From Gemmatimonas sp. (GTDB lineage Bacteria; Gemmatimonadota; Gemmatimonadetes; Gemmatimonadales; Gemmatimonadaceae): a stretch of DNA of 64,000 nt. Positions 1,929 through 28,221 of this stretch are shown piece after piece. Position 1 is the stretch's first letter; each line of letters opens with the position of its first letter. The DNA lies in contig OZ257156.1 of NCBI GenBank assembly GCA_965279375.1, forward strand, positions 608,001-672,000, given 5' to 3'. The notes under the pieces were generated by a model. That model was not told the DNA's origin. It ran no database searches and saw only the letters and a list, made by a program, of their open reading frames with translations. The position numbers and the translations under genes are program-made.

Positions 1929-1956
1929 TTGCCAACGGCTAATTGCCAACGGCTGA
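1922..1956 (+). repeat. 14-bp tandem repeat x2.5 (CGGCTRATTGCCAA) spanning the cbbM stop
   Basis: cggctgattgccaa / cggctaattgccaa / cggctga. Confidence 0.8.
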
Positions 1957-1986
1957 CCCTTTCACCAGACACGTCACCACACACGC

Positions 1987-3060: not shown

Positions 3061-3095
3061 TCGCGTTCGGCGATCCTTTGTCCCTCAGTTCCCTT

Positions 3096-3143
3096 TCGAG
3101 TTTCCTGTCGAGTTTCCTGTCGAGTTTCCTGTCGAGTCTCCTG
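3096..3143 (+). repeat. 12-bp tandem repeat x4 (TCGAGTTTCCTG) abutting the prk start codon
   Basis: Three exact copies plus TCGAGTCTCCTG, then ATG at 3144. Confidence 0.9.
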
Positions 3144-4022
3144 ATGTCAGCGAAGCATCCGATCATTTCGATTACCGGTTCGTCCGGCGCGGGTACCACG
3201 TCGGTTACGCGCACGTTCGAGAACATCTTTCGTCGCGAGGGCGTGAAGGCGGCCATCGTGGAAGGGGACAGCTTTCATCGCTACGATCGTGCGGCGATGA
3301 AGGTCGCGATGGCCGAAGCCGAGCGGTCGGGCAATACCACGTTCAGCCATTTCGGTGACGAAGCGAATCTGTTTGCCGAACTGGAGCTGCTGTTCAAGGA
3401 CTACGGCGAAACGGGGCAAGGGACCGCGCGCAAGTATCTGCACAACAACGAGGAAGCGGCGCCGTTCAATCAGCCGCCGGGCACGTTCACGTCATGGGAG
3501 CCGTTGCCGGCGAGCGAGCTGCTGTTTTACGAAGGGTTGCACGGCGCGGTGGCCACGGACACGGTGGACGTGGCGCGTCACGCCGACCTGCTGATTGGTG
3601 TGGTGCCGGTGGTCAATCTCGAGTGGATTCAAAAGATCCACCGCGATCGCAACACGCGCGGCTACAGCACCGAAGCCGTGACCGACGTGATTCTCCGCCG
3701 CATGCCCGACTACGTGCATTACATTGTGCCACAGTTCAAGCGCACGCACGTGAACTTCCAGCGCGTGCCCGTGGTGGACACGTCGAATCCGTTCATCGCG
3801 CGCACCATTCCCACCGCCGACGAAAGCCTCGTGGTCATTCGCTTCGCCAATCCGCGCGGCTTCGACTTCCCCTACCTGCTCAGCATGTTGCAGGGATCGT
3901 GGATGTCACGTGCCAATACCATTGTCTGCCCCGGCGGCAAGATGGAGTTGGCGATGCAGCTGATCTTCACGCCGATGGTGATGCGGCTCGTGGAACGTGG
4001 CCGCAAATCCAGTGGCACGTGA
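3144..4022 (+). CDS. cbbP: Phosphoribulokinase, proteobacterial type
   Basis: MSAKHPIISITGSSGAGTT P-loop, EGDSFHRYDR, FYEGLHG, NLEWIQKIHRD, NFQRVPVVDTSNPFIAR. Confidence 0.96.
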   Translation: MSAKHPIISITGSSGAGTTSVTRTFENIFRREGVKAAIVEGDSFHRYDRAAMKVAMAEAERSGNTTFSHFGDEANLFAELELLFKDYGETGQGTARKYLHNNEEAAPFNQPPGTFTSWEPLPASELLFYEGLHGAVATDTVDVARHADLLIGVVPVVNLEWIQKIHRDRNTRGYSTEAVTDVILRRMPDYVHYIVPQFKRTHVNFQRVPVVDTSNPFIARTIPTADESLVVIRFANPRGFDFPYLLSMLQGSWMSRANTIVCPGGKMELAMQLIFTPMVMRLVERGRKSSGT

Positions 4023-11088: not shown

Positions 11089-12354
11089 ATGCGGATCTTC
11101 CTCAGCTACGCCTCGCAGGATCGCAGTGCCGCGGAGCCCATCAATCGCGCACTCCTCGATCAGGGGCACGACGTCTTCTTCGATCGAGACGATCTCGCGC
11201 CGGGTGAGGAATATCACATCCAGATTCGCAACGCGATCGAGCGTTCCGAACTGTTCGTCTTTCTGATCAGCGACGACGCGCTCGACACGGGGAGCTACAC
11301 GCTCAACGAACTCGCGATGGCCGAACGCGTGATCACGCGGGCCTCGGGGCGTTTGCTCCCCGTGATGCTGCGCCCCACGTCGTTCGATCGCATTCCCGAG
11401 TTCGTGAAGTCGGTCACGCTGCTGCAGTCGCCGGGCAACATCACCGCCGCGACGGCCGACGCGGTGCATCGCCTCGCGCAGAAGCGGCAGCGCGCGCTCT
11501 GGGGAAAGATCGCTGGCGGCGTGACCGTGGTCGCGCTCCTCGCGATCGGCGCGTGGTCGCTGCGCGGCAACGTGAAACAGACCGCCACTCTCCCGGCCGA
11601 CTCGAGTGCCGCGACGACATCGACGACTGCCACAGGCGCAGGGTCGAATGCGCCCGCCGCTTCCATCGACGGAGCGCCGGAGTCACTGGTGCCTGCCGGT
11701 GCCTTCGTGATGGGCGACGACGAACACGCCCCGATGCGCGAGGTCTATGTAGACAGCTTCTACATCGACACGTACGAAGTCACGACGAGTCGCTACGCGA
11801 AATTTCTCGCAGCAACCGGCGGTATTGCGCCGCCCGATCAATGGGAGACGCTCGAGCCGACAAAGCATGCAAACCTTCCTGTCATCGGCGTGAGTTGGAC
11901 GGATGCGCGCGCGTACTGCGCGTGGGCGGGACGTCGCATGCCGACCGATGCGGAATGGGAGAAGGCCGCGCGCGGCACGGATCAACGACTCTATCCCTGG
12001 GGAAGCGTCTCGCCGGGCATCGATCGAGCCAACTTCGGCAACGCCTCGCCCAGTGCGTACGACGGCGGGTTGTCGGACGTCGGGTCGCACGCAGCAGGAC
12101 GGAGTCCATACGGCGTCGAAGACCTGGCCGGCAACGCCAACGAGTGGGTCGCTGATTGGTACGCCGAGTCATTTCCGCGCAGCGATGTGCGAAATCCGGT
12201 TGGGCCGGAGAGTGGCCCTGGTCGCGTCGTGCGAGGTGGTGGCCGCTATGAACCGCCAGAACGCTTGCTCTCCGCGCGCCGTTACTACGCGGCTCCTGAT
12301 GGTCGACAGGACGATCTGGGCTTCCGTTGCGCACGGAGTGTGCGCGCACGCTGA
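11089..12354 (+). CDS. TIR domain - TM - FGE-sulfatase (SUMF1-like) domain protein
   Basis: IFLSYASQD, VFFDRDDL, YTLNEL (TIR); TM helix; FVMGDD, YEVT, RMPTDAEWEKAARG, DLAGNANEW, LGFRC (FGE). Confidence 0.88.
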   Translation: MRIFLSYASQDRSAAEPINRALLDQGHDVFFDRDDLAPGEEYHIQIRNAIERSELFVFLISDDALDTGSYTLNELAMAERVITRASGRLLPVMLRPTSFDRIPEFVKSVTLLQSPGNITAATADAVHRLAQKRQRALWGKIAGGVTVVALLAIGAWSLRGNVKQTATLPADSSAATTSTTATGAGSNAPAASIDGAPESLVPAGAFVMGDDEHAPMREVYVDSFYIDTYEVTTSRYAKFLAATGGIAPPDQWETLEPTKHANLPVIGVSWTDARAYCAWAGRRMPTDAEWEKAARGTDQRLYPWGSVSPGIDRANFGNASPSAYDGGLSDVGSHAAGRSPYGVEDLAGNANEWVADWYAESFPRSDVRNPVGPESGPGRVVRGGGRYEPPERLLSARRYYAAPDGRQDDLGFRCARSVRAR

Positions 12355-13756: not shown

Positions 13757-13924
13757 TCAGGTACCGCGGCGGCCGCCGTTCTTGGCCTTGGCAGGTGGCT
13801 TTTGCGGCTGACGCGGGTTGGGAGTGTGGCTCTTCTCACCAGCAACCGGCGGCTTGACGCCGGCCGCCGGTGCGGGACGCTTGCGTGAGAAGTCGGGAAT
13901 GGCGGCCGTGTTTCGCTTTTTCAT
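13757..13924 (-). CDS. Small basic hypothetical protein (55 aa)
   Basis: AGGAG RBS before ATG; MKKRNTAAIPDFSRKRP...GGRRGT. Confidence 0.5.
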   Translation of the reverse strand: MKKRNTAAIPDFSRKRPAPAAGVKPPVAGEKSHTPNPRQPQKPPAKAKNGGRRGT

Positions 13925-14019
13925 TGCATGCTCCTGAGACTGCTCGGGGCGCCGTAGCGCGCGTGTGCCGACGTTGTGTCGTTGCTCTGTCTCAGGAAAT
14001 GTAGTCACCCGTCAGCCGC

Positions 14020-16053
14020 TCATCGCTCGCCGTGAGGCCGCCGGAGGTACCCCCCGTAGTAGTAGGGCTCCTCCACGATGATCGTCACGGCAGCGAGGCG
14101 TGTGAGTCCGCCGCTGCGGCCTCGGATGACCACGACGTGCTTGCCGGCGGCGACCGACGCGTTCGCGGTGATCTGCATGATCGTGCTGTTGAGGGGACTC
14201 GGCTCCCCTGGGAGAAACGTGATGGTGAAGTCCCGCGGATTGGCGAGGACCGCGTCGTAGGCGAGCGTGCCGCTGAAGCCACTTAGACGTAGTACATCCA
14301 CCTTGAGCGTCGGCGGCGTTGGCGGCTCACCCTTGGTGATGGTGAGTTCAGTCTGTTGTGGCAGCAGACTGAAATCGGGAATGGATGACGCGACGACGTT
14401 GACCGTGGCCGTCGCTGACGGCGGTGTGGTACCGGCCAATGCCGTGACCCGCAGCGTCGAGGTGCCCACGGTTCCGCCAATCACCTGTAGTGTTGCCGTG
14501 TCGCCGCTCACCCACGTGGGGGCGATCCACGCGCTGCCTCCGCCGACGACGGCTCCTGTCAGCCGCAGCTCGATCAGCTGCCCCACGTAGCTGCCGCTTC
14601 GCGTGATGCGCACGGGAATGAGTGCCATGGCGCGCGGTGCGATCGTCACCGACGGCGTGAGCACTTCGACGGCTAAGGTGTTCGCCGGCGGCGGCGGGGC
14701 CGGCACGGTGAGTGTGACGGTGGTGGTTTTGGAGAGTGTACCCGCCACGCCGCGCACGGTCAGCGGATAGACGCCGACTGCGGTGGAGTTGGCCACGCTC
14801 AGCGTCAGCGCGGAAGTGGCGCCAGTCGCGCTCGCTGGCGAGAAGGCCGCGGTCACGCCCGCCGGCAAGCCGAGTACGTCAAGTGCGACGGCTCCGGGTG
14901 AACCGGTGCGCTGCAGTGCCACGTTAGTCGCCCCGGAAGCACCACGCGCGACAGTGAGCGCACTGGGCGATGCAGAGAGTGTGAAGTCTGCCGGTGTCGT
15001 GACCGTAAGCGTGACCACTTGCGTGCGTACGAGCGGGCCGGCTGTGGCGGTGATGGTGATGGGGTAGGTGCCGTCCGGCGTGGCAGCGGTCGTGGTGACA
15101 TCGAGGCGCGAGGTGGTGCCCGTCACCGTGGCGGGCGTGAATGCGGCCGTGACTCCGGTTGGCAGCGCGCTCGTGGTGAGCAGGATATCTCCGATTCCGG
15201 GTGCGGAGCGTGTCATCGCGATGTTGAACGCAGCACTGCCGCCGGGCGCGACCGCCGCGACACTTGGCGTGGCCAGAAGCGTGATGTCGGGTGGGATCGG
15301 AACGTCGGCGACGGTGAGAAGAAAGCGCGCGGTGTCGCTCGAAGCGCCAGCGGTCCCGATCACTCTCACCAGATAGCGGCCGGCTGTTGCGTTGCCCGGA
15401 ACGGAGAGGCGCAGTATTCCAGTCGCGCCGCTCATCGTGGGCTGATCGAACGACGCCTTCGTGTTGGCCGGAAGCGTTGTTGAATCCGCCACCAGTGTCA
15501 CCCCGCTGGTGAAACCATTGACGCGATTGAGTCCGATATTGACATCGACGACACCGCCGACCGTGACGCTCGCCGACGACGCCGACATGGTGAACGGCTG
15601 AATCACTTCGAGAGTCAACGGTTGCTCACTGGACACGTTGTTGGGTGCGCCCGTCGATACCGCGAGCACAGACGCCGTTGCCAGCCCCGGCCGCGCAGTC
15701 GCGTTCGCTGACAGCGTGAGCGTTGACGAACCGGACGCGGTGAGCGTTGCCGGTGCGAAGCTGGCAGTCACGCCCGGCGGCAGTACGCCTGCGACGCTCA
15801 ACTGCGCGCCGGTTGCCGCGCCAGAGATGGTGACTGCAACCGATGCCGTCGTGCTGGCGCCCGGTAACACGTTCAATCGCGAAGGATTCACGACGGCGGT
15901 GATGGTGGGCGCGACGATCGTGTCCGCACTCGGCGCCGTCACCTTCGTGCAGAAGCCAAGGTCAAATATCGTGCACGCGGTGAGCAGCGTCGCAGGCACC
16001 AGTCGAAGGGTGCGCAAGCCATTCCGAAAATTCGTCCGCACGGTGTGCTCCAT
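14020..16053 (-). CDS. Putative lipoprotein with about six tandem Ig-like beta-sandwich repeats
   Basis: Lipobox-like LLTAC; repeated DF(T/S)L..P..LTV..G...LP.GVTA.F.PA...G.TS.L.L units; Thr/Ala/Val rich; alternative GTG start at 16041. Confidence 0.75.
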   Translation of the reverse strand: MEHTVRTNFRNGLRTLRLVPATLLTACTIFDLGFCTKVTAPSADTIVAPTITAVVNPSRLNVLPGASTTASVAVTISGAATGAQLSVAGVLPPGVTASFAPATLTASGSSTLTLSANATARPGLATASVLAVSTGAPNNVSSEQPLTLEVIQPFTMSASSASVTVGGVVDVNIGLNRVNGFTSGVTLVADSTTLPANTKASFDQPTMSGATGILRLSVPGNATAGRYLVRVIGTAGASSDTARFLLTVADVPIPPDITLLATPSVAAVAPGGSAAFNIAMTRSAPGIGDILLTTSALPTGVTAAFTPATVTGTTSRLDVTTTAATPDGTYPITITATAGPLVRTQVVTLTVTTPADFTLSASPSALTVARGASGATNVALQRTGSPGAVALDVLGLPAGVTAAFSPASATGATSALTLSVANSTAVGVYPLTVRGVAGTLSKTTTVTLTVPAPPPPANTLAVEVLTPSVTIAPRAMALIPVRITRSGSYVGQLIELRLTGAVVGGGSAWIAPTWVSGDTATLQVIGGTVGTSTLRVTALAGTTPPSATATVNVVASSIPDFSLLPQQTELTITKGEPPTPPTLKVDVLRLSGFSGTLAYDAVLANPRDFTITFLPGEPSPLNSTIMQITANASVAAGKHVVVIRGRSGGLTRLAAVTIIVEEPYYYGGYLRRPHGER

Positions 16054-16194
16054 CGTCAGAGGTCGTGCACGCCTCCGCTGGATCGGGATGCGCGTCCAAC
16101 CGCTGTACGTCGGCCGACCTGCAGTCGTCTCACTCCAATTTCTGCGCGAGCCGACGCAGTTGCCGTCGTAGCGGCAGACCATAGGTTGCGACGG

Positions 16195-19122
16195 ATGCGG
16201 AGCCTGTCCTCACGCCTGCTCACACTCTGCGCGGTACTAGCGTCGCCGATGGCGGACCGATCCATAATGGTCGCGCCGCCTCTGCCGCGCGCCGAGCGAT
16301 CTGCGCCGTTGTCAGTGAGCGCGCGCGAACTGAGCGCCGCCGCGTTGCGCGCGGCTGAAGTCGGCACGCTCGATCGATGGAGTACGCCGTGGAATGAGCG
16401 ATTGCGTATCGCTCCCACCGACCGCTCAGCGCTGTTCGCGGTGGCCACGTCGGAGCGGCTGCGGTATCGACTGCTGCGCGCCGACTCGCTGTACGCACGC
16501 GTGGCTTCTTCAGCACCCGATGACGTGCTGGCACGACAGGCGACCCTCTGGCGCGCGACGCTGCGCGCTGTGCGCGGCCAGGCGGCAGAGGCGAGCACGC
16601 AACTCCTTCAGCTCGAGCAACGGTCGCTTCGCGACACAGATACCTCGACGGCGCTGGACGCGATTCTCGTACGATCCGCAACCGTGATGCGCGTTGACGG
16701 CGCATCGGCGGCGGCGCTCGTCCTCGCGCGCGGCGACTCGCTCCGCTGGTCGCGCGAGCCAATGCTCGACGCTGCGTCGCGCTGCCGCTGGGCCTCGGTG
16801 CGTTCACGGCTCGGGGATCGCCTGTCGGCGCGCAAGCTTGCACGCGAAGGTGAAGCGATCGCACTGCGCGCCGGGCTTTCGCGACTGGCAGCGACGTGCG
16901 TGTTCACCTTGGCGACGGAGTTCGCTCGTAGCGGCCTCACCGACTCGCTGCGTGCGCCGATGCTGCGCGCGATCGCCATGCAGGAGCGCACCGGAGACCT
17001 GGCGGGACTGGCGAGCACCAGTCAGTGGGCCGGATTCTATGTGTCCTCGCTCGGCCACTTCACGCCCGCGCAGCGGTATCTCGCGACGGCGTGGAGCGCG
17101 TCCATGCGGGCGGGAGTGGTGGACGTGGCCGCGTGGACAGCGCTCAATCGTGCGGCAATCGCGCAGCGCTTCTTCGATGCCGCGGCCACGACACTCTGGC
17201 TGGCGCGTGCGGATTCACTGATGCGCATCGTCAACGATCCGCAAGGTCGCATTGAAGTATCGCGGACCATGGCGCGTCAGTCAGCGCTGCTGGGCGACTA
17301 CGATGGCGCACGGGCGCAGTTGATTCAGGCGCTGGAAGTCGCAGAGCGACTGGGTGAGCCTACTGGGCGCGTATCGATCATCGCGACACTGCAGGACACC
17401 GACCTCCGCGCGGGGCGGCTCGACGATGCGGCCCGATGGCTACGCGAGAATGAAGTGCTGATTGAGCGATACAAAATGTCAGGGTTGCTCAGCTCGCAGC
17501 ACGACCGCGAGGCGGAGCTGGCGTTGCATCGCGGCGACGCGCGTACCGCACTGCAACTGCTGGATCACGCCGATGATGCGCTACACCCGAGCCAGTATCT
17601 CTATCGTCACGGACTGGAGCTCCGGCGCTCGCTCGCGCTGGCCATGACCGGCGACGTGGCCGCCGCAGCGCGCTCAGCGCTTTCTGCGGGCGATACCTTC
17701 GATCGCTGGCGGGCCTCGTTGAGCGACAGCTCCTTGCGGTTGCTCACGGTTCAGGCGCAACGCGGCAGCGGTTGGTACGTCTCTGAACTCACCGCGCGCC
17801 TCGCCGACGCGGGCGAAGTCGAGGTCGCGTTCACACTCGCTGAGCGTCGTCGTGCGCGGGATCTGCGTGAGCGACTGCTGATGGCGGGGGGCACTCGTCT
17901 GGCGCCCGACGCAACACCGCTGGGCATCGACGCACTGCGCCGTGCGATTCCCGATGCGTCGACTGCCATCGTCACGATCGACGCCGGCGAAGATGACGCG
18001 CGCGGGACCGCGTTCATCCTCACGCAGCAGTCGATGACAGCGTTCCCGATGCCATCGGTTCGCGAGATCGCGCCGCGCATTCGTCGGCTGGTTGCGTGGC
18101 ATGAATCCGGACGCGACGCGTCCGTCGATGCACGAATGCTGGGCACTGCACTGATTGGCCCGCTGCTCTCTCAGCTCGACAGCGAACGGATCACGCGCCT
18201 CGTGATTCTTCCCGAAGGCGTGTTGCATCGCCTGCCCTTTGATGTGCTTCGACTACCGGATGGGCGCTATCTGTTGGAGCGATTCGAGACCGCGGTGGCA
18301 CCGTCGGCCAACGTACTGGCCAGACTGCGCGCGTTGCCAAGCGTGATTGGCTCGTCGACAGCCGCAGGCAGCACCGGACGCGCGCGCGCACTGGCGCTGG
18401 CCGATGCGCGCGTCCCCGTGCGAGTGGGCACGGACACGACGCTGGGCGGCCGACTACTGGCTGCGATGCTGGGGCGCGACAGGCGCTTGCCGCGTCTTGT
18501 CGGTGCGCGCGACGAGGTCGCCTGGATCGAGCGCGCGATGCCCGGCACAGTCGGATTGCGCGGTGCTGCAGCGCGAGAGGATGTGTTCAAACGTGATGCC
18601 GGCGGTTTCCCACTGCTGCATCTGGCAACGCACGCCGTGGTGGATGAATGGTCGGGTGCGACCGCGGCCATCGCGCTGACGCCCGGCGGCGACGACGATG
18701 GCACGCTCGACAGTGGAGAAATTTCGACGCTGTCGCTCAACGCCAACGTGGTCGTCCTTTCGGCCTGCCGCACCGTCGGCGGCGAGATCATCGCCGGCGA
18801 AGGAGTACGCGGACTGACCAGTGCGTTTCTTCAGGCCGGCGCGCGCAGCGTTGTTGCAACGTCGTGGCGCGTGAACGACCGTGCCGTGGTACCACTGGTG
18901 GGCGCGATGTACGAGTCGCTGGCGCTCGGTCAACCGATCGGGCGCGCGCTGCGTGACGCCAAGCTCGCGTCGTTGGCGCGCGGCGATGGTCCTTCGGTTT
19001 GGGGCGCGTTCACGCTCGTCGGTGATCCGATGCGTACCGTCTCTGCCGCGTCGCGCGCTACCGCACCCGTAGTCGCACCACCCGCGAGCGGCGCTCGTTT
19101 CCGTCCACGCGGCGCGCCGTGA
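16195..19122 (+). CDS. TPR-like repeat + C-terminal CHAT (caspase-like) protease
   Basis: LVILPEGVLHRLPF, LLHLATHA (His), VVLSACRT (Cys), AFLQAGARSVVATSWRVND, WGAFTLVGD; helical N-terminal region; possible signal peptide. Confidence 0.9.
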   Translation: MRSLSSRLLTLCAVLASPMADRSIMVAPPLPRAERSAPLSVSARELSAAALRAAEVGTLDRWSTPWNERLRIAPTDRSALFAVATSERLRYRLLRADSLYARVASSAPDDVLARQATLWRATLRAVRGQAAEASTQLLQLEQRSLRDTDTSTALDAILVRSATVMRVDGASAAALVLARGDSLRWSREPMLDAASRCRWASVRSRLGDRLSARKLAREGEAIALRAGLSRLAATCVFTLATEFARSGLTDSLRAPMLRAIAMQERTGDLAGLASTSQWAGFYVSSLGHFTPAQRYLATAWSASMRAGVVDVAAWTALNRAAIAQRFFDAAATTLWLARADSLMRIVNDPQGRIEVSRTMARQSALLGDYDGARAQLIQALEVAERLGEPTGRVSIIATLQDTDLRAGRLDDAARWLRENEVLIERYKMSGLLSSQHDREAELALHRGDARTALQLLDHADDALHPSQYLYRHGLELRRSLALAMTGDVAAAARSALSAGDTFDRWRASLSDSSLRLLTVQAQRGSGWYVSELTARLADAGEVEVAFTLAERRRARDLRERLLMAGGTRLAPDATPLGIDALRRAIPDASTAIVTIDAGEDDARGTAFILTQQSMTAFPMPSVREIAPRIRRLVAWHESGRDASVDARMLGTALIGPLLSQLDSERITRLVILPEGVLHRLPFDVLRLPDGRYLLERFETAVAPSANVLARLRALPSVIGSSTAAGSTGRARALALADARVPVRVGTDTTLGGRLLAAMLGRDRRLPRLVGARDEVAWIERAMPGTVGLRGAAAREDVFKRDAGGFPLLHLATHAVVDEWSGATAAIALTPGGDDDGTLDSGEISTLSLNANVVVLSACRTVGGEIIAGEGVRGLTSAFLQAGARSVVATSWRVNDRAVVPLVGAMYESLALGQPIGRALRDAKLASLARGDGPSVWGAFTLVGDPMRTVSAASRATAPVVAPPASGARFRPRGAP

Positions 19123-19807
19123 CCATCCAGTCCGCCGCGGCGTGCTTTCGCAAAAGCGCCGCCTCGGACTCCGAGAGTGTTAGCGTCGAGTCGCTTGTCT
19201 CACGCGCGAGAATCACCACACCCGCACTGTCGACCAGTTCAAACGCATAGCGAACGGCGCCGGGCACCGCGTGCCAGACGAAGACGGGCAACGACTCCGC
19301 GACTTCCTGCATTGGCGCAACCAGGCTGACCTCGGCGGGATCTCCGCGAACGATCGAGCCGCGCGACTGCCGCAACCGCTGGCCGCCGATGCCGACCGCG
19401 ACAAGCACCAACGCAGCCGCTGCGAGATTGCGCAGCGACCACATCCGGGGCGCTGTCCTGCTTACGGCGCGTGACTTGGTGGCACCGGTCGGCTGTGTGT
19501 CAGTTACTCGCAGGCGATCGGCAGCCTCCGCCTCCGCGATACTCCGTAGCAGCGCAAACTCGGCGTGACACGAGGTACAGCGCAGCACGTGTTCGAGCTG
19601 CTGCAGATTGGGATCGCCCGCCGTCGCGCCGCGCGCGAGCAGTTCCAGCGCCTCGGGTGATGGACACGCCTCGCGAGAGACCGGCCGAGCGGCGTCGGCA
19701 TTCGCCTTCGTGTGTGCTTGAAACGCAGCACGCAGCGAAGCGCCGCCCTGATGGTCGCTCACGTCGCTCTTGTCGTCGTGCGTGTTGTCGCTTTCGTGCT
19801 CGCTCAC
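19058..19807 (-). CDS. Zinc-binding (zf-HC2/ZAS) transmembrane anti-sigma-like protein with extracytoplasmic beta domain
   Basis: CPSPEAL...HVLRCTSC (HxxxCxxC), TM LAAAALVLVAVGIG, FVWHAVPGAVRYAFEL; GTG overlaps sigma stop. Confidence 0.8.
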   Translation of the reverse strand: MSEHESDNTHDDKSDVSDHQGGASLRAAFQAHTKANADAARPVSREACPSPEALELLARGATAGDPNLQQLEHVLRCTSCHAEFALLRSIAEAEAADRLRVTDTQPTGATKSRAVSRTAPRMWSLRNLAAAALVLVAVGIGGQRLRQSRGSIVRGDPAEVSLVAPMQEVAESLPVFVWHAVPGAVRYAFELVDSAGVVILARETSDSTLTLSESEAALLRKHAAADWMVTARRVDGNERRSRVVRLRVR

Positions 19808-20433
19808 GCGTCCTCCGGCCATCGATAGCCCGCGCGAACGAGTCGCTCCCGCAGGTCCTGCAGTCCGCGATACAGCAAATTGCGAACTTTCGCGTCTGAC
19901 CAACCCAACACCGTCATGATCTCGGCGCGCTCGTAGCCCGACAAATGCATCCGCACCACGATACGTCGCGCTTCGACGATCGACTCGAGCTCACGCGCGA
20001 CGGCCGCACCGAGCTCGGACTCCAGAAGCGCAGCGTCGGTCTGCTCATCCGCGATCAACGACGACGGAGTCGCAACGTCCAATGCGGGCTCGCGCTCCTC
20101 CGTTCGGCGCCGCTGCCGTACGAGGTCCACGGCCGCCGTCATCGCCGTCCGATACACGTAGGACGTTGGCAACTGCGCAATCTGCTCACTGTCGGGATGC
20201 GCACGCCAAATCCGAACGCGCACCTCCTGAACAAGGGCATCCAGGTCGGCGTCGGTCAGGCCATGCCGAACGCCCGCTGCGCGCACCATCCGACCGAGCC
20301 GTTGCAGTACGGCTTCGATCGGGAGCGACAGCATATCCGGTGACGATTTCGGCGCGTTCACGGCATCGATCGTAGATCGCAAACCGGCTGCCCGCCAGCG
20401 GCCATCCAGTGAGTCGCGGTCAATTGCGGTCAA
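19804..20433 (-). CDS. ECF sigma-70 factor
   Basis: DLDALVQEVRVRIW, YVYRTAMTAAVDLVR (sigma2); EIMTVLGWSDAKVRNLLYRGLQDLR (sigma4); start uncertain (TTG 20433 or ATG 20334). Confidence 0.87.
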   Translation of the reverse strand: MTAIDRDSLDGRWRAAGLRSTIDAVNAPKSSPDMLSLPIEAVLQRLGRMVRAAGVRHGLTDADLDALVQEVRVRIWRAHPDSEQIAQLPTSYVYRTAMTAAVDLVRQRRRTEEREPALDVATPSSLIADEQTDAALLESELGAAVARELESIVEARRIVVRMHLSGYERAEIMTVLGWSDAKVRNLLYRGLQDLRERLVRAGYRWPEDA

Positions 20434-23400
20434 TTCCAGCCAAACAGCGCGCCGATCCTCGAGTCGCGGGACGCAAGCTCAAACCCTCCCATCAGATATC
20501 CTTGCAGATCGCCTTCCGCACGACTCGCGAGCGATTCCAGGTCGAGCTGCACTGCGGCCGCCTCACGTGTCTTGCCGTGCGCTGAAAGTTCGCTCATGCG
20601 CCGTAGCAGCACGCCATGCGCCCACGCCGCCCGATGGGCGCGGGTCCGCGAGCCTGCCGGCGCATCATCGACGTAGGCCTGCACAACGGGGCCGAGCGAC
20701 CGAGCGGGAGACGCAGGTACCGCCGCACCGCCCGCTTGCTGCAGCGCCGTGATCGCATCCAACGCGCGGGCGAACTTCGCCGCCGGTGGCTCGACGGGCG
20801 CGTCGGTTAGCGATGCATGCGACAGCAATCGATCACGCAGTGCCGCGCTCACTGCAGTCAGCTCTGCATCGAACGCTTCACCATCTGTGAGCGCCAGCCG
20901 TAGCGCCTCCGCCTGCGCGGCGGCGCGCTCCGGTTCAAGGTGCGTGATGCGCTGTGCACTATAGAGAAAGTAGAGCAAGCCGGCGGCCACGCGTTGCGCA
21001 TCGAGTTGGATCGTGCGTGGCAGCCAACCGCGCTCGATCGCGCGCAATACCCACTGCCGAGCGACTGCCTCGCACGGATGTGCCTCGACGAAGCGATTGC
21101 GCTGGCCCATCACCACGATGTTGTAGCAAGAATCGGCCAGCGACAGCTCGTGGAGTCGCGGCTCAACGAGATCTCCCGATCGCGTCGACTGTCGATCGAC
21201 GGAGTATTGAATCTCGAAGAACGCTGCCACGGCCGGATCGCTTCGATCGTTCACCGACAACCCGCCCGCGTTGAACGTCTCGGGCTCCCGCTCGAGATCC
21301 GCTCGCTCACGTTCGGCCAACAGCGCCCGCACCACGCCGCGCCACTCCGGCTCACTCAACGCGATCCGTTCGGCGAGGCTGATCGCGCGATCGAGTGCGA
21401 GGTTTGCGGCAGCCTCGCTGCCAGCCTCTCCTCCGCCAAGATTCGCCATCTCCGAGTCACCGGCAGTCGCCGAGCGTAGCGCGCTGGCCGCGAGTTGCTG
21501 GCAGACCGCTTCCACATCGGGTGCGCCGAGGTCGCGGGCAAGTGCGCAGAGCGCGAGTGCCTCGCTCGCGGACGGCGTCGGTTCACCCTCTTCGACGGAG
21601 AATGCGAATATTCCTTCCACACAATCGAGTGCGGCGCTCAGGCGAAGCTGCGCCGGGTCCGACTCGAGCGACTCGCGCGCTGTCATGAGCAACTTCGTCA
21701 ACGTCTCGGACTGCGTTTCGGGCGCGCGCAACCCGACACAGAACTCCGCCACGCATCGCAGCAGGGCGACCGCGATGTCATCGCTCGCACCCCAGTCGTC
21801 GTTGCGTTCATCGCCGACGTGATCGTTCCGACGATCCGCGACGTGCTCGCTGTCGCCCAAGCGGCGCCACGGGTCGCCGAAGAGCAACAATGCTCCCCAT
21901 GCATCTGGGGCGTGCGCGGAGGACGCTGCCGCGCGCGCGTGGCGCATTGCGCTACCCACGGTGTCGGTCAGGGCATGGCGATAGAATGCTTCTGCCATCT
22001 CAGCGGCAACCGTATCGTACACCGGCAGTTGACTGGCCACGACCGCTGGTGCGCCACGCTGCATCAGAGCGGCGGCGAGCCCGCGGCTCGCTCCGCCGCC
22101 CAGATAGTCACTGGCGCCGACAGAGCAGACGTTGAGGTACGTGATCGCGGCGCATTCGCTGGCCGCCGAGAGTACATCAGCGGTGGAAAGTCGCGCGCTG
22201 GGTGAGAGCCAGATGCTGTGCAGGCCGTCTTCAACGTCTGCGTGCGCGGCGACATGCACGAGCGCCGCCGCACGCAGACCGCGCAGCATCGAGGAAGCGG
22301 AGAGCTCGTCCGAAGGGAGCTCCGGGACGTCCCACGCGCCGCGCGCCCGCAGCGCGTGCGCGAGACGATCACGCTCGGGCGTCGCAAACGGCAGTGGGTC
22401 GGATGAAATCGCTTCCGCGGCGGCGACGCACAGCGCACGAGCCGGCGCGACCTCCATGCGCGTGGGCGCTTCGAGAATGGTCGTGAGTGCGCGCAGCGAC
22501 GACGCGCGCGATACGACGTGCGTGGTGCCCAGATAGCCGCGCGTGGTTCGCAACAGTTCCCAGGGAATCTCTGCCTGCGCCGCCGAAAGATCGGGAGAGA
22601 TGAGCAGCGTTGCGTGCGACTCGATGAGGTGCTGCACGCGCGGTGGAATGGACGACCAGATTGCGCGCGCTGCGGCGTCGAGCGTCGCCGTCGCGGCGTC
22701 TTCGTCTACCGTTTGCTGATCGAGGAAGGAGCGCATGATCAGCGACACTGAATCGGCAGCCGATTCGAACCCGTCGAGCGCGCGATGCAGCTCCAGACCG
22801 CCCTCTGCCGTCACCACCACGAGCGTGGTACCGCGCGCCGTTGCCGTCGGAATGAGAACGAGCGTGCTCGCCAGTGCCGCGTCGCGCGCCCCCTGCTCCT
22901 CCGACGCCTCGCGCCGAGTGCTCTGCGCCATTCGCTGTGCGATGCGCCCAAGCCAATCGTTGGCCAGTGCACGCGCACGTTGCACCGGGCTTGCCCGATC
23001 GTGATCGGTGCGATCGGCAAACACCTCATCGGTAGTGCGCGTGGTTTCAAGGCACGCCGAGAGGCGCACGCGGGCGTTGTCATCGCCTGAGTCCAGATAG
23101 CGTGCAATGGCTGCGTCTGTGACGCGATGTAGCGCGCGCTCCGCGTACGCGCGAAATGGCAGATGCTGCAGCGTATCTCGCAGCGACTTCTCCGTCAGCC
23201 GATAGCAGGTCATGAACAGCTCGATCGACGCCGTGGTCGCTTCGCCTTGCGTGCGCACGAGGTAGTCGAGTCGATCGTAGGCGACCGTCGTCCAGGAGAG
23301 CGCGTCGGCCGCGCGTGTGAGTGCAGCATTGGCCTGCGCAAAGTCGGCATGCGCAAGGTCGGCATGCGCAGATTCGGCATGCGCGTCCGACGCGTCGTGC

Positions 23401-24398
23401 CTGTTGCCTCGCAGTCCGTAGAGCATCGCCACGAGCGCCTGCTCGTGGCGATCATCGGAGTCGAGCCGCGATGCCAGCAGGGCATCGAGTGCAGGGATGC
23501 GCTCTGCCCCGTCGAGATGCTGGAGCGCGGCGTGGACCTCTGTCGCGCCCAGCGCACTCGGAATACCAAAGGCCTCACACATCGTGGCCGCGGCCAGAGC
23601 GGCGCTCGCGGCCTGATCGCGCGTTACTGTGCGCGCAACTCCCAGCGCCGCACGGACCATGTGCCCGTGCAACGGACGCTCGAGCAGCTTCACGGCAGCG
23701 GCGTCCTGTTCGGCGAGGTCCGGCGAGTCGCCAAAGCACACGCGAAGCCATTCGTGCGCGAGGGCGCGCGTGGACGCCGTAGTACGCACGAGCGGCTCGG
23801 CGAACGTCAGCGCGCGACGATAGTGGCCGGCGGCCGCGCGTCGCTCCAACAGCGACTCCGCCAGCATCCCCTCGATCAAGCTGAGCTGTGCGTGAGCCCA
23901 AGCGTTCAGGGGCCGTGCACTCGTCGCCTTCCCAAGCAACAGGCGCGCGTGAGCCAGGGAGCGGCGTGCAGCCTGCAGATCGTCGCTTGCAGCAGACGCA
24001 TCGGCATGGAGAAGCGCGGCCAACACCACCGACAGCTCACCATCCACGCTGTTGCCGCTGCCCACCGAGGCTGCACGTGACGACGCTGGCTGAAAGAACC
24101 ATGCATCCAGCACGACGGTGCTGAAGGCAATCACCAGCGAGCTGGAACCCGCAGTCTGCGCGGTGAATGCCGACGACAGCGCGAGTCGACAGACATCGGC
24201 GGAGTGCTCAGGAAACGCGTTGAGCCACTCGGCGAGCGCCTGGGCGGCACGCTCACCACCGGCAGCATTGCGATAGCCTGAACTGATCCAGGCCTGCGTT
24301 GCCGCGAGATGCTGCTGCCAGAATGCACCGGCTGTCGGTGCGTCATCATTGGAAGTCATCGGCCTCTCCGGTCTGGTAGGAGCCGGCGCAGCGTTCAA
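20430..24398 (-). CDS. Large CHAT-domain protein (central CHAT, long helical flanks)
   Basis: LLISPD...IPWELL, LVHVAAHA (His), YLNVCSVG (Cys), ALMQRGAPAVVASQLPVYD, WGALLLFGDP. Confidence 0.82.
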   Translation of the reverse strand: MNAAPAPTRPERPMTSNDDAPTAGAFWQQHLAATQAWISSGYRNAAGGERAAQALAEWLNAFPEHSADVCRLALSSAFTAQTAGSSSLVIAFSTVVLDAWFFQPASSRAASVGSGNSVDGELSVVLAALLHADASAASDDLQAARRSLAHARLLLGKATSARPLNAWAHAQLSLIEGMLAESLLERRAAAGHYRRALTFAEPLVRTTASTRALAHEWLRVCFGDSPDLAEQDAAAVKLLERPLHGHMVRAALGVARTVTRDQAASAALAAATMCEAFGIPSALGATEVHAALQHLDGAERIPALDALLASRLDSDDRHEQALVAMLYGLRGNRHDASDAHAESAHADLAHADFAQANAALTRAADALSWTTVAYDRLDYLVRTQGEATTASIELFMTCYRLTEKSLRDTLQHLPFRAYAERALHRVTDAAIARYLDSGDDNARVRLSACLETTRTTDEVFADRTDHDRASPVQRARALANDWLGRIAQRMAQSTRREASEEQGARDAALASTLVLIPTATARGTTLVVVTAEGGLELHRALDGFESAADSVSLIMRSFLDQQTVDEDAATATLDAAARAIWSSIPPRVQHLIESHATLLISPDLSAAQAEIPWELLRTTRGYLGTTHVVSRASSLRALTTILEAPTRMEVAPARALCVAAAEAISSDPLPFATPERDRLAHALRARGAWDVPELPSDELSASSMLRGLRAAALVHVAAHADVEDGLHSIWLSPSARLSTADVLSAASECAAITYLNVCSVGASDYLGGGASRGLAAALMQRGAPAVVASQLPVYDTVAAEMAEAFYRHALTDTVGSAMRHARAAASSAHAPDAWGALLLFGDPWRRLGDSEHVADRRNDHVGDERNDDWGASDDIAVALLRCVAEFCVGLRAPETQSETLTKLLMTARESLESDPAQLRLSAALDCVEGIFAFSVEEGEPTPSASEALALCALARDLGAPDVEAVCQQLAASALRSATAGDSEMANLGGGEAGSEAAANLALDRAISLAERIALSEPEWRGVVRALLAERERADLEREPETFNAGGLSVNDRSDPAVAAFFEIQYSVDRQSTRSGDLVEPRLHELSLADSCYNIVVMGQRNRFVEAHPCEAVARQWVLRAIERGWLPRTIQLDAQRVAAGLLYFLYSAQRITHLEPERAAAQAEALRLALTDGEAFDAELTAVSAALRDRLLSHASLTDAPVEPPAAKFARALDAITALQQAGGAAVPASPARSLGPVVQAYVDDAPAGSRTRAHRAAWAHGVLLRRMSELSAHGKTREAAAVQLDLESLASRAEGDLQGYLMGGFELASRDSRIGALFGWN

Positions 24399-25123
24399 TG
24401 CTGCGTCGAGAGCCAGCGTCGCAATCGTGTGGCCACGTCGGGGGGAATCACTTCGGACAGCCCGTCAAGGAGCGCGTTCGCTCGCTCAATGTCGCCCGAC
24501 CTTGCGGTCAGCGCCACCGCGTTCTGCGCGGCCTGTTCGATGCGCTTCGCGCCGCTGTCGTCGTGCTCGGCCTCCCGCAACAGCATGACCAGCGCCTCCA
24601 GCGTGGTCTTCGCCGCCGTCGCATCGTCTCCTTCGCGTTCAAACACGCCCGCCTGCAGGAGTTTGAAGAGTGCGACAGCCGACGGTGCGTCGAGCTGTGT
24701 GGCAATCGTGAGTCCGTCGGCCACGCGCGCGGCTGGGTATGGGCCAGTCGCACTCACAATGTCGTCGTAGCAACGAAAGAGCTCGAGCACGCGCGCACGA
24801 TCAGGCGCCTCGTCGAGAAACGCGTGCACCGCCGCGTACCGCTCGGGCGACGCCGCACCCGCGCCCCGGAAATCCTCGATGAGCAGATACACCGCCTCGG
24901 CCTCTTCATAGGAGATGCCGCCATACGGTGGCGATCCACCGACAGACCAGAGCAGCTGCGTGAACGACGCCTCGTCGTCCGCGAGCATGCTGCGCAGCAG
25001 CCAGTGCGGCCAGGGCATCGACGTTTCGTCCGTCTCGCTGCTCCCCGCTTCGCTTGATGCACTGTCGGATGCGTTGTCGGATGCGTTGCCAGAGCTGTGA
25101 TCAGAAGTGCTGTCGGCCGACAT
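24395..25123 (-). CDS. Hypothetical helical protein, first gene of the CHAT-sigma operon
   Basis: GGAGG RBS; Ser/Asp-rich N-terminus; TPR-like C-terminal helices; stop overlaps next start. Confidence 0.7.
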   Translation of the reverse strand: MSADSTSDHSSGNASDNASDSASSEAGSSETDETSMPWPHWLLRSMLADDEASFTQLLWSVGGSPPYGGISYEEAEAVYLLIEDFRGAGAASPERYAAVHAFLDEAPDRARVLELFRCYDDIVSATGPYPAARVADGLTIATQLDAPSAVALFKLLQAGVFEREGDDATAAKTTLEALVMLLREAEHDDSGAKRIEQAAQNAVALTARSGDIERANALLDGLSEVIPPDVATRLRRWLSTQH

Positions 25124-25398: not shown

Positions 25399-27090
25399 AT
25401 GCGCATTCTCCTCATCCACCCGAACTACCACTCCGGCGGCGCGGAGATCGCGGGTAATTGGCCACCTGCATGGGTGGCATATCTGGCCGGTGCACTCAAG
25501 GGCAACGGTTACACGGATATCCGGTTCATCGACGCGATGACCGATCATATCGACGACGCGGCGCTGGAAGGAATTCTGCGCGAGGAGAAGCCGGATCTCG
25601 TACTCTGCACGGCGATCACCCCGGCTATCTACAAGGCGCAGTCGACGATGGCGCTGGTCAAGCGCCTGCACCCGAATGCGGTGACGGTACTCGGCGGCAT
25701 CCACGGCACGTTCATGTACGGTCAGGTGCTGACCGAGACGCCTGATATCGACTACATCATTCGCGGCGAAGGCGAGGAGATTCTCGTCAACTTCGTGAAC
25801 GCGTTGAGTGCGGGGCGCCTGACCCAAGAACGCGCGAGCATCAAGGGGATCGCGTATCTCGAAAACGGCATCCCCACTGCGACGCCGGCACACCCGCCGA
25901 TCCAGGATCTCGACTCGCTCAAGCCCGACTGGAGCATCCTGAACTGGGATCGGTACATCTATATCCCGCTCAACTGCCGAGTGGCGATCCCCAACTTTGC
26001 GCGCGGCTGCCCGTTCACCTGCAGCTTCTGCTCGCAGTGGAAGTTCTGGCGTCAGTATCGCACGCGCGATCCGAAGAAGTTCGTGGACGAAATCGAAGTG
26101 CTGGTGAAGCAGCATAACGTCGGATTCTTCATTCTTGCCGACGAAGAGCCGACGATCAATCGCAAGAAGTTCGTCGAGCTGTGCGAGGAGCTGATCAAAC
26201 GCGACCTGGGCATCAAGTGGGGCATCAACACCCGCGTGACGGACATCCTGCGCGATGAAGAATTGCTGCCGCTCTATCGCAAGGCTGGCCTCGTGCACGT
26301 GTCGCTCGGCACAGAGGCGGCGGCGCAGCTCAAGCTCGATCGCTTCAACAAGGAGATCAAGGTCGAGCAGAGCAAGAAGGCGATCGCACTGCTGCGCGCG
26401 AACGGCATCGTGACGGAGGCGCAGTTCATCGTCGGCCTCGAGAACGAGACACCGGAGACGCTCGAAGAGACGTACAAGATGGCGCTCGACTGGAAGCCCG
26501 ATCTGGTCAACTGGAACTGCTACACACCGTGGCCCTTCAGCGATCTGTTCCAGGAGCTGGGCGACAAGGTCGAAGTGCGCGACTACGCCAAGTACAACTT
26601 CGTCACGCCGATCATTCAGCCGGACGCGATGACGCGCGATGAAGTGCTCAAGGGCGTGCTCAACAACTATCGCCGCTTCTACTTCAAGAAGGCGACGTGG
26701 GGCTACTTGTGGGACAAGGACGCCTACCGACAGAAGTATCTGCGCGGCTGCCTCAAGGCCTACATGAAGAGTGCGATGGAGCGGCGCTTCTACGACCTCG
26801 GCCGCATCAACTACTGGGGTCAGAGCACAGTGGACTGGAAGTTCGATGAGTCAAAGACCACCAGCAAGGAAGAGCTGATCCGCCTGCGACAGAAGCGCGA
26901 GATCCAGCACGTGCGCGTGGAAGGCGGTCACCAGAGCGGACAACGCACGGAGTTGCCGATGATCGCGATGGGCGGACACAACCTGCCTGCCGACGAATTC
27001 ATCGCGCCGAAGCGCTCGCGGTTGGTGGCCGATGGTACGCCACCACTCGACGATACGGAGAAGTCTCACGAGCCCATTCGAGCCTGCTGA
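25399..27090 (+). CDS. bchE: Mg-protoporphyrin IX monomethyl ester anaerobic oxidative cyclase (B12-binding radical SAM)
   Basis: Diagnostic N-terminus [35 protein letters not shown] (CxxxCxxC), [29 protein letters not shown]. Confidence 0.94.
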
Positions 27091-27108
27091 CCGCTCGCCA
27101 CTACCGAC

Positions 27109-28221
27109 ATGCCGCATGCCCTGACACCCGAGAACTATGACGCCATCGTCGCTGACTTTCAGCGCGATGGTGTCGTGGTGTTGACCGATGTCGATCCGCG
27201 TCCGCTCGAAATTCTCACCCGCATGCTCGCCGAGCAAAGCGGGCTCGATACCGCCACCATTCGCGCCGCTGGTCATGACGCCGGCGTCGAGATTGGCGCG
27301 GATGTGCGACAACGCATCGCGCGTGGCCACATGACGTCGGAGTTGCGTGAGACGAGCCACGCCGTCTTTGGCGATCTGCTCACACGCTTGATCGGTCCGC
27401 TCATTCACACGAGTCAGACCTTTCACTACCAGCTCAAGCCGCGCGATCAGCGGGATGTGATCCTCCAAGGCTATAGCGGCGACGGACGCGAAGTGCAGGC
27501 GCTCTACGGCATCCACAACGAATTTACGGCCGCGCGCGTGCTCACCAGTCCGAGCGCGGTCGTCTGCTGGATTCCGCTCAACACGTTCGACGGCAAGGCG
27601 CTCTACTTCTATCCGGGCTCACATCGATTGGGCATGGTAGCCAACCGCTGGCTTCCTCGTCACGATGCGTGCGAAGGAATCGAGCGCGTGGGGCCGGTGG
27701 TGGAGTATCAGCCCAAGCTCGGCGAAGTGGTGATCTTCAACTTCCTGCTGCTGCACGGCAGTGGGGCCGCGGTGCAGGGCGAACCGATGCAGGGGCCGCA
27801 GCCGACGCGTATCAGCTGCGACCTCCGCTTCTTCCCGTTCAGCGGAGTGCTCGACTCCGAGGCGTCTGCGCTCCGCCCCGACCCGATCGGGTGGATCAAC
27901 GCACATCTGCCAACGCTCACGGACGACCTGCTGTTGGCGCCGCTGTATGAGGTGCTGGCGTACATGGGGCAACCCATCGACTGGCCAACGCTCCCGAAGC
28001 ACTCGGTCGCGCACTGGGCGCGCTTCGTGGAGGGATTGGTCAGCGGCGACACGGCACAGCGGTACGACGCGATCGCGCAGCTCGCCAACACCGACATCGG
28101 CTTCGATCCGCTACAGAGCTACCTCGACCGGTTTGCCGGCGCCGCGCTCACGCAGCGCCCGTACGAATCGATACGTGGAGTCGTGCCGCAGGCGGAGGCG
28201 ATGCTATCGAGTTTGGCGTAA
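27109..28221 (+). CDS. Phytanoyl-CoA dioxygenase-like Fe(II)/2-oxoglutarate oxygenase
   Basis: FQRDGVVVL, IHNE (HxE), VVCWIPL, YPGSH, GEVVIFNFLLLHGS, RISCDLRF. Confidence 0.7.
   Translation: MPHALTPENYDAIVADFQRDGVVVLTDVDPRPLEILTRMLAEQSGLDTATIRAAGHDAGVEIGADVRQRIARGHMTSELRETSHAVFGDLLTRLIGPLIHTSQTFHYQLKPRDQRDVILQGYSGDGREVQALYGIHNEFTAARVLTSPSAVVCWIPLNTFDGKALYFYPGSHRLGMVANRWLPRHDACEGIERVGPVVEYQPKLGEVVIFNFLLLHGSGAAVQGEPMQGPQPTRISCDLRFFPFSGVLDSEASALRPDPIGWINAHLPTLTDDLLLAPLYEVLAYMGQPIDWPTLPKHSVAHWARFVEGLVSGDTAQRYDAIAQLANTDIGFDPLQSYLDRFAGAALTQRPYESIRGVVPQAEAMLSSLA

Follow-up and report, generated by a model that had tools for sequence, protein, structure and literature searches.

The window analysed here, a stretch of 64,000 nucleotides from Gemmatimonas sp. 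(contig OZ257156.1, positions 608,001 to 672,000, assembly GCA_965279375.1), encodes two large proteins with a caspase-like CHAT domain, CHAT1 and CHAT2, on either side of the genes for a sigma factor of the extracytoplasmic function (ECF) type and its anti-sigma factor, which raises the question whether both proteases belong to a single sigma switch. Comparison with related loci reveals that the locus consists of two unrelated modules lying side by side, namely a common three-gene switch of ECF, anti-sigma and CHAT2 genes (module A, accompanied by a lipoprotein gene) and a rare pair of CHAT1 and a gene termed X (module B). Module A represents the DdvA/DdvS system of Myxococcus in a split version. 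Our preferred reading, to which we assign a probability of roughly 0.55, is that module A cuts its anti-sigma factor and frees the ECF sigma factor for the lipoprotein gene, module B being an independent and likely inserted neighbour. The observations behind it are gene content, co-occurrence, gene fusions, the His-Cys dyads, a conserved arginine and a DNA motif. Module A comprises the following features:

14020–16053, minus strand: lipoprotein of 677 amino acids, lipobox LTAC with Cys27 at 15973–15975, beta-rich repeats
16105–16133, minus strand: GTGAGAC-N17-CGTAC, predicted promoter for the ECF sigma factor, some 50 bp upstream of the lipoprotein start
16182–16187, plus strand: TAnnnT box TAGGTT, 7 nt before ATG 16195, likely leaderless CHAT2 promoter
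16195–19122, plus strand: CHAT2, TPR-CHAT protein of 975 amino acids, H813 (18631–18633), C858 (18766–18768), signal-like N-terminus
19058–19807, minus strand: anti-sigma factor of 249 amino acids, CHCC-type zinc domain, transmembrane helix at about 19382–19435, flexible linker, FN3-like periplasmic domain
19346–19348, minus strand: Arg154 (SIVR-G), candidate P1 residue in the periplasmic linker, present in 88 of 89 homologs
19804–20361, minus strand: ECF sigma factor, probably starting at GTG 20361 or else at ATG 20334, GTGA overlap with the anti-sigma gene
20369–20374, minus strand: TAnnnT box TACGAT, 7 nt before GTG 20361, likely the ECF gene's own leaderless promoter

The original prediction, made from the nucleotide sequence of this locus, described much of its layout correctly. 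Its six open reading frames (ORFs) and their strands stand, as do the CHAT domains of the two large proteins (Pfam E-values 1.9e-24 and 1.3e-56), the retained dyads (H813/C858 in CHAT2, H706/C745 in CHAT1), an anti-sigma factor with the zinc motif C48-H73xxxC77xxC80 and one transmembrane helix, and the 65-bp convergent overlap. The proposed chain of 4-bp overlaps did not survive as a whole: the one between the ECF and anti-sigma genes is real (GTGA, 19804–19807), while those between the hypothetical gene X and CHAT1 and between CHAT1 and ECF need the farthest-upstream TTG starts. CHAT1 had been given 1322 residues and has 1309 when read from ATG 24359, which is preceded by GGAGAGG and also chosen by a codon model. 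For the supposed Ig-repeat lipoprotein, the lipobox LTAC and beta-rich repeats are present and a Pfam Ig match is not.

The three-gene switch and its predicted output

The ECF query matched 10 of 41 related genomes, the paralog of the host genome included, and nine of the ten other ECF loci carry an anti-sigma factor together with a TPR-CHAT protein. A profile of the anti-sigma factor matched 115 of 401 genomes of the phylum, again counting the host. We mapped 90 loci, ten from the ECF query and 80 from among the higher-scoring anti-sigma profile matches listed. At the 61 loci with an ECF of the window type, a CHAT gene lies within the fetched flank in 52 and none does in nine; 46 of these 52 CHAT genes are convergent, two divergent upstream, three upstream and co-directional, and one downstream. 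The upstream gene of the remaining 29 loci is a different sigma factor (7/7 tested), and their CHAT is co-directional after the anti-sigma gene in 18, convergent in one and fused to the anti-sigma factor in three; the other seven were left unscored for CHAT, one being frameshifted and several lying at contig ends. In the three fusions (L072–L074, from three genomes), anti-sigma domain, transmembrane helix, FN3 domain and TPR-CHAT form a single ORF of 1305–1331 amino acids, located behind a 255-amino-acid ECF gene and before a gene for a secreted protein. As the TPR-CHAT part follows the transmembrane helix, the order within this ORF places CHAT on the periplasmic side, which is the topology of DdvA. 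The pattern used for the His motif is unmatched in most members of the clade that holds these fusions. Pairwise identities of ECF, anti-sigma and CHAT2 proteins correlate across 51 loci (rho 0.58–0.70), a correlation that relatedness alone can explain in part, and, whichever of the three proteins is taken, the three nearest homologs of the window come from the same loci, which are not those nearest to the paralog in the same genome.

This paralog, located at about 844.7–849.3 kb of the host contig C1 (L008:7801-13315), comprises an ECF gene, an anti-sigma gene without zinc motif and a convergent TPR-CHAT gene, next to a divergent PEP-CTERM gene with a variant of the promoter motif described below (N18, GGT); it may serve as a natural specificity control. 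The host genome is complete (5.3 Mb) and contains seven CHAT genes in all, as well as a gene for the intramembrane protease RseP.

Pfam detects the sigma-70 regions r2 and r4 in the ECF protein, the homology of which begins near GTG 20361, and yields no match over the cut-off for the anti-sigma factor, X or the lipoprotein. The structural model of the anti-sigma factor (predicted local distance difference test, pLDDT, 80.8) begins with a helical N-terminal domain and a transmembrane helix, after which a disordered linker leads to a beta-sandwich, the best fold matches of which are FN3-like modules; a likeness of this outer domain to DUF928 was considered and dropped after Pfam gave no DUF928 match in nine members. 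The zinc motif is present in only 34 of 60 window-type anti-sigma homologs.

The Pfam CHAT domain of CHAT2 covers residues 646–944, and H813 and C858 are invariant in all 49 aligned homologs. Searched with the model of CHAT2 (pLDDT 87.7), solved structures gave DdvA as the top fold match (E 6e-15), with separases at ranks 3–11 and Csx29 further hits after it. Judged from hydropathy alone, a hydrophobic N-terminus is found in 44 of 49 CHAT2 homologs compared to 84 of 980 interior windows, and 19 of the 49 possess a C-terminal hydrophobic anchor; none of six CHAT1-type proteins shows such an N-terminus. CHAT2 is predicted to be a periplasmic site-1 protease. Its start is likely fixed by the position of the TAGGTT box, and it is this start that yields the signal-like peptide. 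Boxes of this kind also precede 14 of 47 CHAT2 orthologs and 32 of 60 orthologous ECF ORFs, and across the 4319 genes of the genome TAnnnT boxes peak at 5–8 nt upstream of the called start, with 230 counts, which suggests that leaderless transcription is common in this host. Because such a box lies 7 nt before GTG 20361, the ECF gene likely has its own leaderless promoter, uncoupled from CHAT1. A consensus sigma-70 promoter was not found between 13500 and 25600.

The residue that we consider the candidate cut site is Arg154 in the linker of the anti-sigma factor. Among 89 full-length anti-sigma factors (the 90 loci minus two partial ones, plus the window), an arginine aligns at this position in 88, within linkers of 17–39 amino acids, and the sole exception (L124) has no CHAT gene nearby. 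With L124 left out, just two columns of the alignment (A6) are invariant, R154 among them. Of the 59 members of the window-type clade, 55 have G, A or S at P1' and 31 have D or E at P4. Independently of any alignment, 57 of 89 linkers contain the dipeptide RG, while 1000 shuffles gave a mean of 26 and a maximum of 41; a wider pattern, picked post hoc, scored 82 against 31 in shuffles. Separases cleave after the arginine of ExxR, according to the accessible part of PMC11506125, and R154-G155 is, by its conservation, a candidate for a separase-like cut site.

We also modelled CHAT2 (residues 60–948) together with the outer part of the anti-sigma factor (residues 143–249), a check that the original prediction had proposed. 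The complex scored 0.55 compared to 0.01 for the best control, the runs share at least 86% of contacts and the partner has a pLDDT of at least 74, which weakly supports an interaction: 116 of 157 solved pairs pass the mark applied, as do 2 of 215 mismatched ones, and those passing at 0.60 or under are 18 of the 157 solved pairs and both mismatches.

The lipoprotein is predicted to be the output of the ECF sigma factor, one of two roles that the original prediction had suggested, and the predicted promoter before its gene is in line with this role. The protein matches the NCBIfam model invert_tail (E 1.8e-5), and its orthologs are divergent from the CHAT gene in three loci (L025, L107 and L162). 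The DNA upstream of three orthologous lipoprotein genes shares GTGA(G/T)ACG...CGT in an alignment. De novo search of 59 outward flanks returned the motif GTGAGA(A/C/G)-N17-CGT with a score of 381 compared to 295–301 in four controls. In its fixed form TGAGAV-N17-CGT, the motif occurs in 18 of 59 outward flanks, a count that is circular in that the same 59 regions served to discover the motif and that comes from related genomes; of 373 genes lying farther away, 11 have it, and these, too, mostly look secreted by their N-termini. On the reverse strand it was found in one of 59 flanks, in flanks of the other clade in none of 22, and its spacer is sharp at 17 bp, spacers of 12–16 and 18–22 giving at most three. 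When the matrix was built without sites of the own genome, the window site ranked third among the intergenic sites of this genome, and at the held-out locus L162 the motif precedes the lipoprotein gene. The second-ranked site precedes a gene for a 920-amino-acid Big_2 lipoprotein-like protein (C1:4179777-4182664, locus L163). CGT at −10 is also a feature of myxobacterial ECF promoters described in the accessible part of PMC6061681. Genes flanking module A encode PEP-CTERM, Ig, RCC1, Kelch and WD40 proteins among others (48 hand-picked of 192 neighbours scanned in one set). A motif that the de novo search returned for the co-directional clade was discarded, as it turned out to be CHAT coding sequence.

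Several further observations concern these flanks. The Big_2 gene of L163 has an extra GTGAGAC half-site and is a candidate distant regulon member. Recurring unannotated secreted proteins of about 430, 700 and 155 amino acids accompany a module-A subclade at four loci, several of them with the motif. Behind the lipoprotein gene of the window (13757–14008, minus strand) lies a small basic Pro/Lys-rich ORF that is also found at L162; its DNA matches many congeners, and Pfam gave no match.

CHAT1 and X

The features of module B, likely inserted beside module A, are:

20430–24359, minus strand: CHAT1, 1309 amino acids, H706 (22242–22244), C745 (22125–22127), unnamed C-terminal domain
24395–25123, minus strand: X, protein with an unnamed helical domain of about 210 amino acids, motif WSVGGSPPYGG, partner gene of CHAT1

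CHAT1 has a helical N-terminus without a signal peptide and a Pfam CHAT domain at residues 576–842, and H706 and C745 (numbered from ATG 24359) are invariant in six of six CHAT1-type proteins. It is rare: no ortholog was found in 40 relatives, where the sole match was a CHAT2 ortholog; a protein search returned one full-length homolog, a query with the single protein nothing in GTDB contigs, and an alignment of the C-terminal domain nothing in metagenome contigs nor, in a weak search, among proteins of 2184–5000 amino acids. Neither X nor the C-terminal domain of CHAT1 matched a Pfam family over the cut-off, a PADLOC model or a solved structure. Homology between the two was considered and rejected (hhalign probability 0.2, hidden Markov model E 0.14), and atlas look-alikes of X (DUF6707, 0.95) and of the CHAT1 tail (0.89) as well as weak matches to VMAP-M0 (E 0.0087) and QatB (E 0.0026) were unconfirmed and not used.

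X homologs (n = 69) stand alone or are fused to TPR, to TIR-TPR or to either end of TPR-CHAT proteins. A CHAT1-type gene follows X downstream at 10 of 30 X loci, two of which (L035, L168) carry a gene for a DUF900 alpha/beta hydrolase in between. Because the neighbours of X comprise TIR, TPR, caspase and C25-like proteins, module B is most likely a cytoplasmic, sensor-gated protease of the conflict or defence type, with X as its partner or substrate. A gene of about 420–500 amino acids for a Peptidase C25-like protein recurs beside X at four loci, and at another a caspase (C14) gene lies upstream of X. The X-CHAT1 locus of Lentzea (L035:1317-8289) is near a MoxR / NB-ARC-TPR cluster, and an X-TPR-CHAT gene of a member of the Streptosporangiaceae (L038:2-9310) follows a Tc-toxin TcA-like gene.

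Outside the window, the two modules were not found together. X and the C-terminal domain of CHAT1 are absent from all 90 module-A loci and each from 400 other genomes of the phylum, and the profiles of the module-A ECF and anti-sigma factors matched none of the 30 X loci, many contigs of which are shorter than 4 kb. In a quick tree, CHAT2 falls within the module-A clade (support 97), CHAT1 stands beside the X-linked CHATs (90, a placement that is left open), and a branch of 98 separates them. A congener possesses the lipoprotein, CHAT2, anti-sigma factor and ECF at 49, 58, 40 and 66% identity, and there the ECF gene is preceded upstream by one short gene and ppk, without CHAT1; the corresponding interval of the window holds CHAT1, X, a radical-SAM gene, PhyH and GH32. 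Of the neighbourhood conservation that the original prediction had put forward as a check, the part concerning module A is borne out, and module B was found at none of the 90 related module-A loci. The cytoplasmic CHAT with its small partner, assigned an inner arm of the switch by that prediction, is missing from the related loci, the other genomes of the phylum and the syntenic congener locus alike and most likely takes no part in that switch. Hence, the two-protease cascade, the most striking part of the first reading, falls away, and a separate rare module is exposed, consisting of the X domain and a cytoplasmic CHAT for which no family model or structure was found.

Beyond X, the plus strand at 25399–28221 carries a gene for a B12-binding radical-SAM protein, presumably BchE-like, and one for a PhyH-family dioxygenase; no photosynthesis cluster was seen beside them. 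On the other side, the plus strand encodes a protein with a TIR domain, a transmembrane helix and an FGE-sulfatase domain (11089–12354), which is also found in several congeners, and, at 549–4022, what we take from the N-termini to be the RubisCO large subunit, fructose-bisphosphatase and phosphoribulokinase-like genes.

Mechanism and rival explanations

According to our preferred reading, CHAT2 would be exported to the periplasm and bind the part of the anti-sigma factor formed by linker and FN3 domain. An envelope signal would open the TPR-gated active site of CHAT2, which would then cut R154-G155 in a separase-like manner with arginine at P1. RseP would cleave the remaining stump, and the freed ECF would transcribe the lipoprotein gene from the predicted promoter and probably also that of another Ig-like lipoprotein, encoded at a distant site of the host genome. 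Beyond gene content and conservation, we infer every step of this sequence. It retains from the original prediction a switch independent of CRISPR, with cas1 absent from the genome, in which the exported CHAT would act on the outer part of the anti-sigma factor.

Several points weigh against this reading, apart from the circular motif count and the short X-locus contigs given above. As many as 37 of 59 flanks lack even a looser form of the motif. The window site itself, SIVR-G, has no acidic P4, and the N-terminal hydropathy of the window's CHAT2 is a modest 2.03. RG is kept in seven of eight full-length window-type anti-sigma factors whose fetched flank, the region searched, holds no CHAT gene, so that the arginine is not tied to a neighbouring CHAT. 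The complex passed weakly and may owe this to its resemblance to solved TPR-CHAT structures, and the complex run returned no contacts, so the arginine is not placed in the active site. Dyad mutants of DdvA did not differ from the wild type in the resting state, and autoproteolysis was not observed (PMC11506125).

The alternative that survives best, although we consider it unlikely, is that CHAT2 binds and does not cut: as a sensor or scaffold on the linker, with the arginine as a docking or pseudo-substrate residue, it would keep RseP or some other site-1 protease off the anti-sigma factor as long as no signal arrives. The conservation of the arginine and the weak complex pass suit docking equally well, and the accessible part of PMC11506125 describes a TPR-CHAT of DdvA that blocks RseP and dyad mutants without a resting phenotype. 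Against pure binding speak the invariance of the dyad in 49 of 49 homologs and the small P1' with an acidic P4, which looks like a protease site.

Clearly less probable is that CHAT2 is an active exported protease with another substrate, for instance the lipoprotein that the switch induces or some foreign protein, the anti-sigma factor being inactivated otherwise. Secreted proteins do flank the module in both clades, and the retention of RG where no CHAT adjoins would fit as well, but the fusions of anti-sigma factor and CHAT, the co-inheritance of the three genes and the complex score indicate the anti-sigma factor as the substrate, and the flanking secreted proteins are non-homologous and therefore share no obvious cut site.

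A dual cascade, in which CHAT1 and X would be a cytoplasmic arm on the same sigma/anti-sigma pair that was newly recruited in this lineage, is very improbable and was discarded, since the co-directional position of X and CHAT1 directly upstream of ECF, possible read-through where no terminator-like site was found between these genes, and the atypical codon use of both modules are outweighed by the mutual absence of the modules (0/90 and 0/30 loci), the separate clades of the two CHATs, the congener without CHAT1 before ppk, two supporting overlaps that are artefacts of start calling and the own TAnnnT box of the ECF gene.

A broader proposal extends the preferred reading and is tentative: module A would represent trans-envelope switches found throughout the phylum, with an exported, separase-like and arginine-specific CHAT as site-1 enzyme, split or fused, and an interchangeable surface output, a lipoprotein or PEP-CTERM protein, which would be expressed from TGAGA-N17-CGT and feed back as a ligand of the TPR region. 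If this is true, it would be the first demonstrated site-1 cleavage by a CHAT protease, with the bond and a reporter promoter already named. X-CHAT1 would then add another caspase module, cytoplasmic and not described before.

Comparison with known systems

A literature search, from the coverage of which subscription papers were mostly missing so that absence from print is not established, returned no paper on a split module of ECF, anti-sigma factor and exported CHAT or on X. Work on caspase-sigma modules outside CRISPR reportedly exists and was not found on searching.

Module B can be compared with the defence system of a caspase-like protease and an alpha/beta hydrolase, as presented in the accessible part of bioRxiv 10.1101/2025.11.14.688446. 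The DUF900 hydrolase at two of ten X-CHAT1 loci is a point in common, as is the presence of TIR, TPR and additional caspase or C25-like proteases at the remaining X loci. Module B of the window has no adjacent hydrolase effector gene, which places it outside the hydrolase module.

For module A, ECF54 (PMC7826278, accessible part) offers ECF sigma genes that adjoin TPR-CHAT genes. ECF54 is actinobacterial, has the promoter GTATCAG/CTCC and, as neighbours, a carboxypeptidase-regulatory-like protein at +1 and a subtilase, and no anti-sigma factor is reported in that part of the source; the window in contrast has a transmembrane anti-sigma factor at +1 and the TGAGA/CGT motif and is thus not a member of ECF54. 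The type III-E Craspase (Csx29/Csx30/CASP-sigma), which the original prediction had cited, likewise ties a TPR-CHAT protease to a sigma factor and an inhibitor, but Csx29 acts in the cytoplasm under the control of Cas7-11 (PMC10028731, accessible part). The NCBIfam model of Csx29 scored 11.5, its cut-off being 300, and genes of such a system (Csx29 with Cas7-11 and Csx30) are not among the called genes of the window, Cas7-11 not having been searched genome-wide; the locus is not a Craspase. Separase (Peptidase C50) resembles CHAT2 in its TPR-like solenoid and caspase-clan domain, and its arginine at P1 is that of the predicted site; it differs in being eukaryotic and cytoplasmic or nuclear, while the window site is without the P4 acid and its specificity is deduced from substrate conservation.

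Closer than all of these is DdvA/DdvS of Myxococcus xanthus (PMC11506125 and PMC6061681, accessible parts; PDB 8rot, 8rw5). Both systems share an ECF sigma factor, a CHCC zinc anti-sigma factor with a single transmembrane helix and a flexible periplasmic linker, a TPR-CHAT with a His-Cys dyad (predicted to be periplasmic here) as the proposed site-1 protease, and CGT at −10 (predicted here); as in DdvA/DdvS, the ECF gene of the window is directly followed by that of the anti-sigma factor with its zinc residues C48, H73, C77 and C80 and one transmembrane helix. The regulon of DdvA/DdvS comprises defence by CRISPR and by CBASS (cyclic oligonucleotide-based antiphage signalling system), whereas the predicted targets of module A are secreted or surface proteins, genes for secreted proteins being those that the motif precedes, and PADLOC gave no match for module-A proteins. 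The predicted −35 element, TGAGA, sets the window apart from DdvA/DdvS, and so do the FN3-like outer domain and the near-invariant linker arginine of its anti-sigma factor. While the TPR-CHAT of DdvA is fused to the anti-sigma factor, as in 3 of 90 related loci, that of the window stands alone: its gene is convergent, and the protein carries a signal-like peptide itself. The split form thus provides enzyme and substrate as separate proteins, a defined bond (R154-G155), controls (H813/C858) and a reporter promoter, and makes the idea of site-1 cleavage testable in vitro and in a heterologous host.

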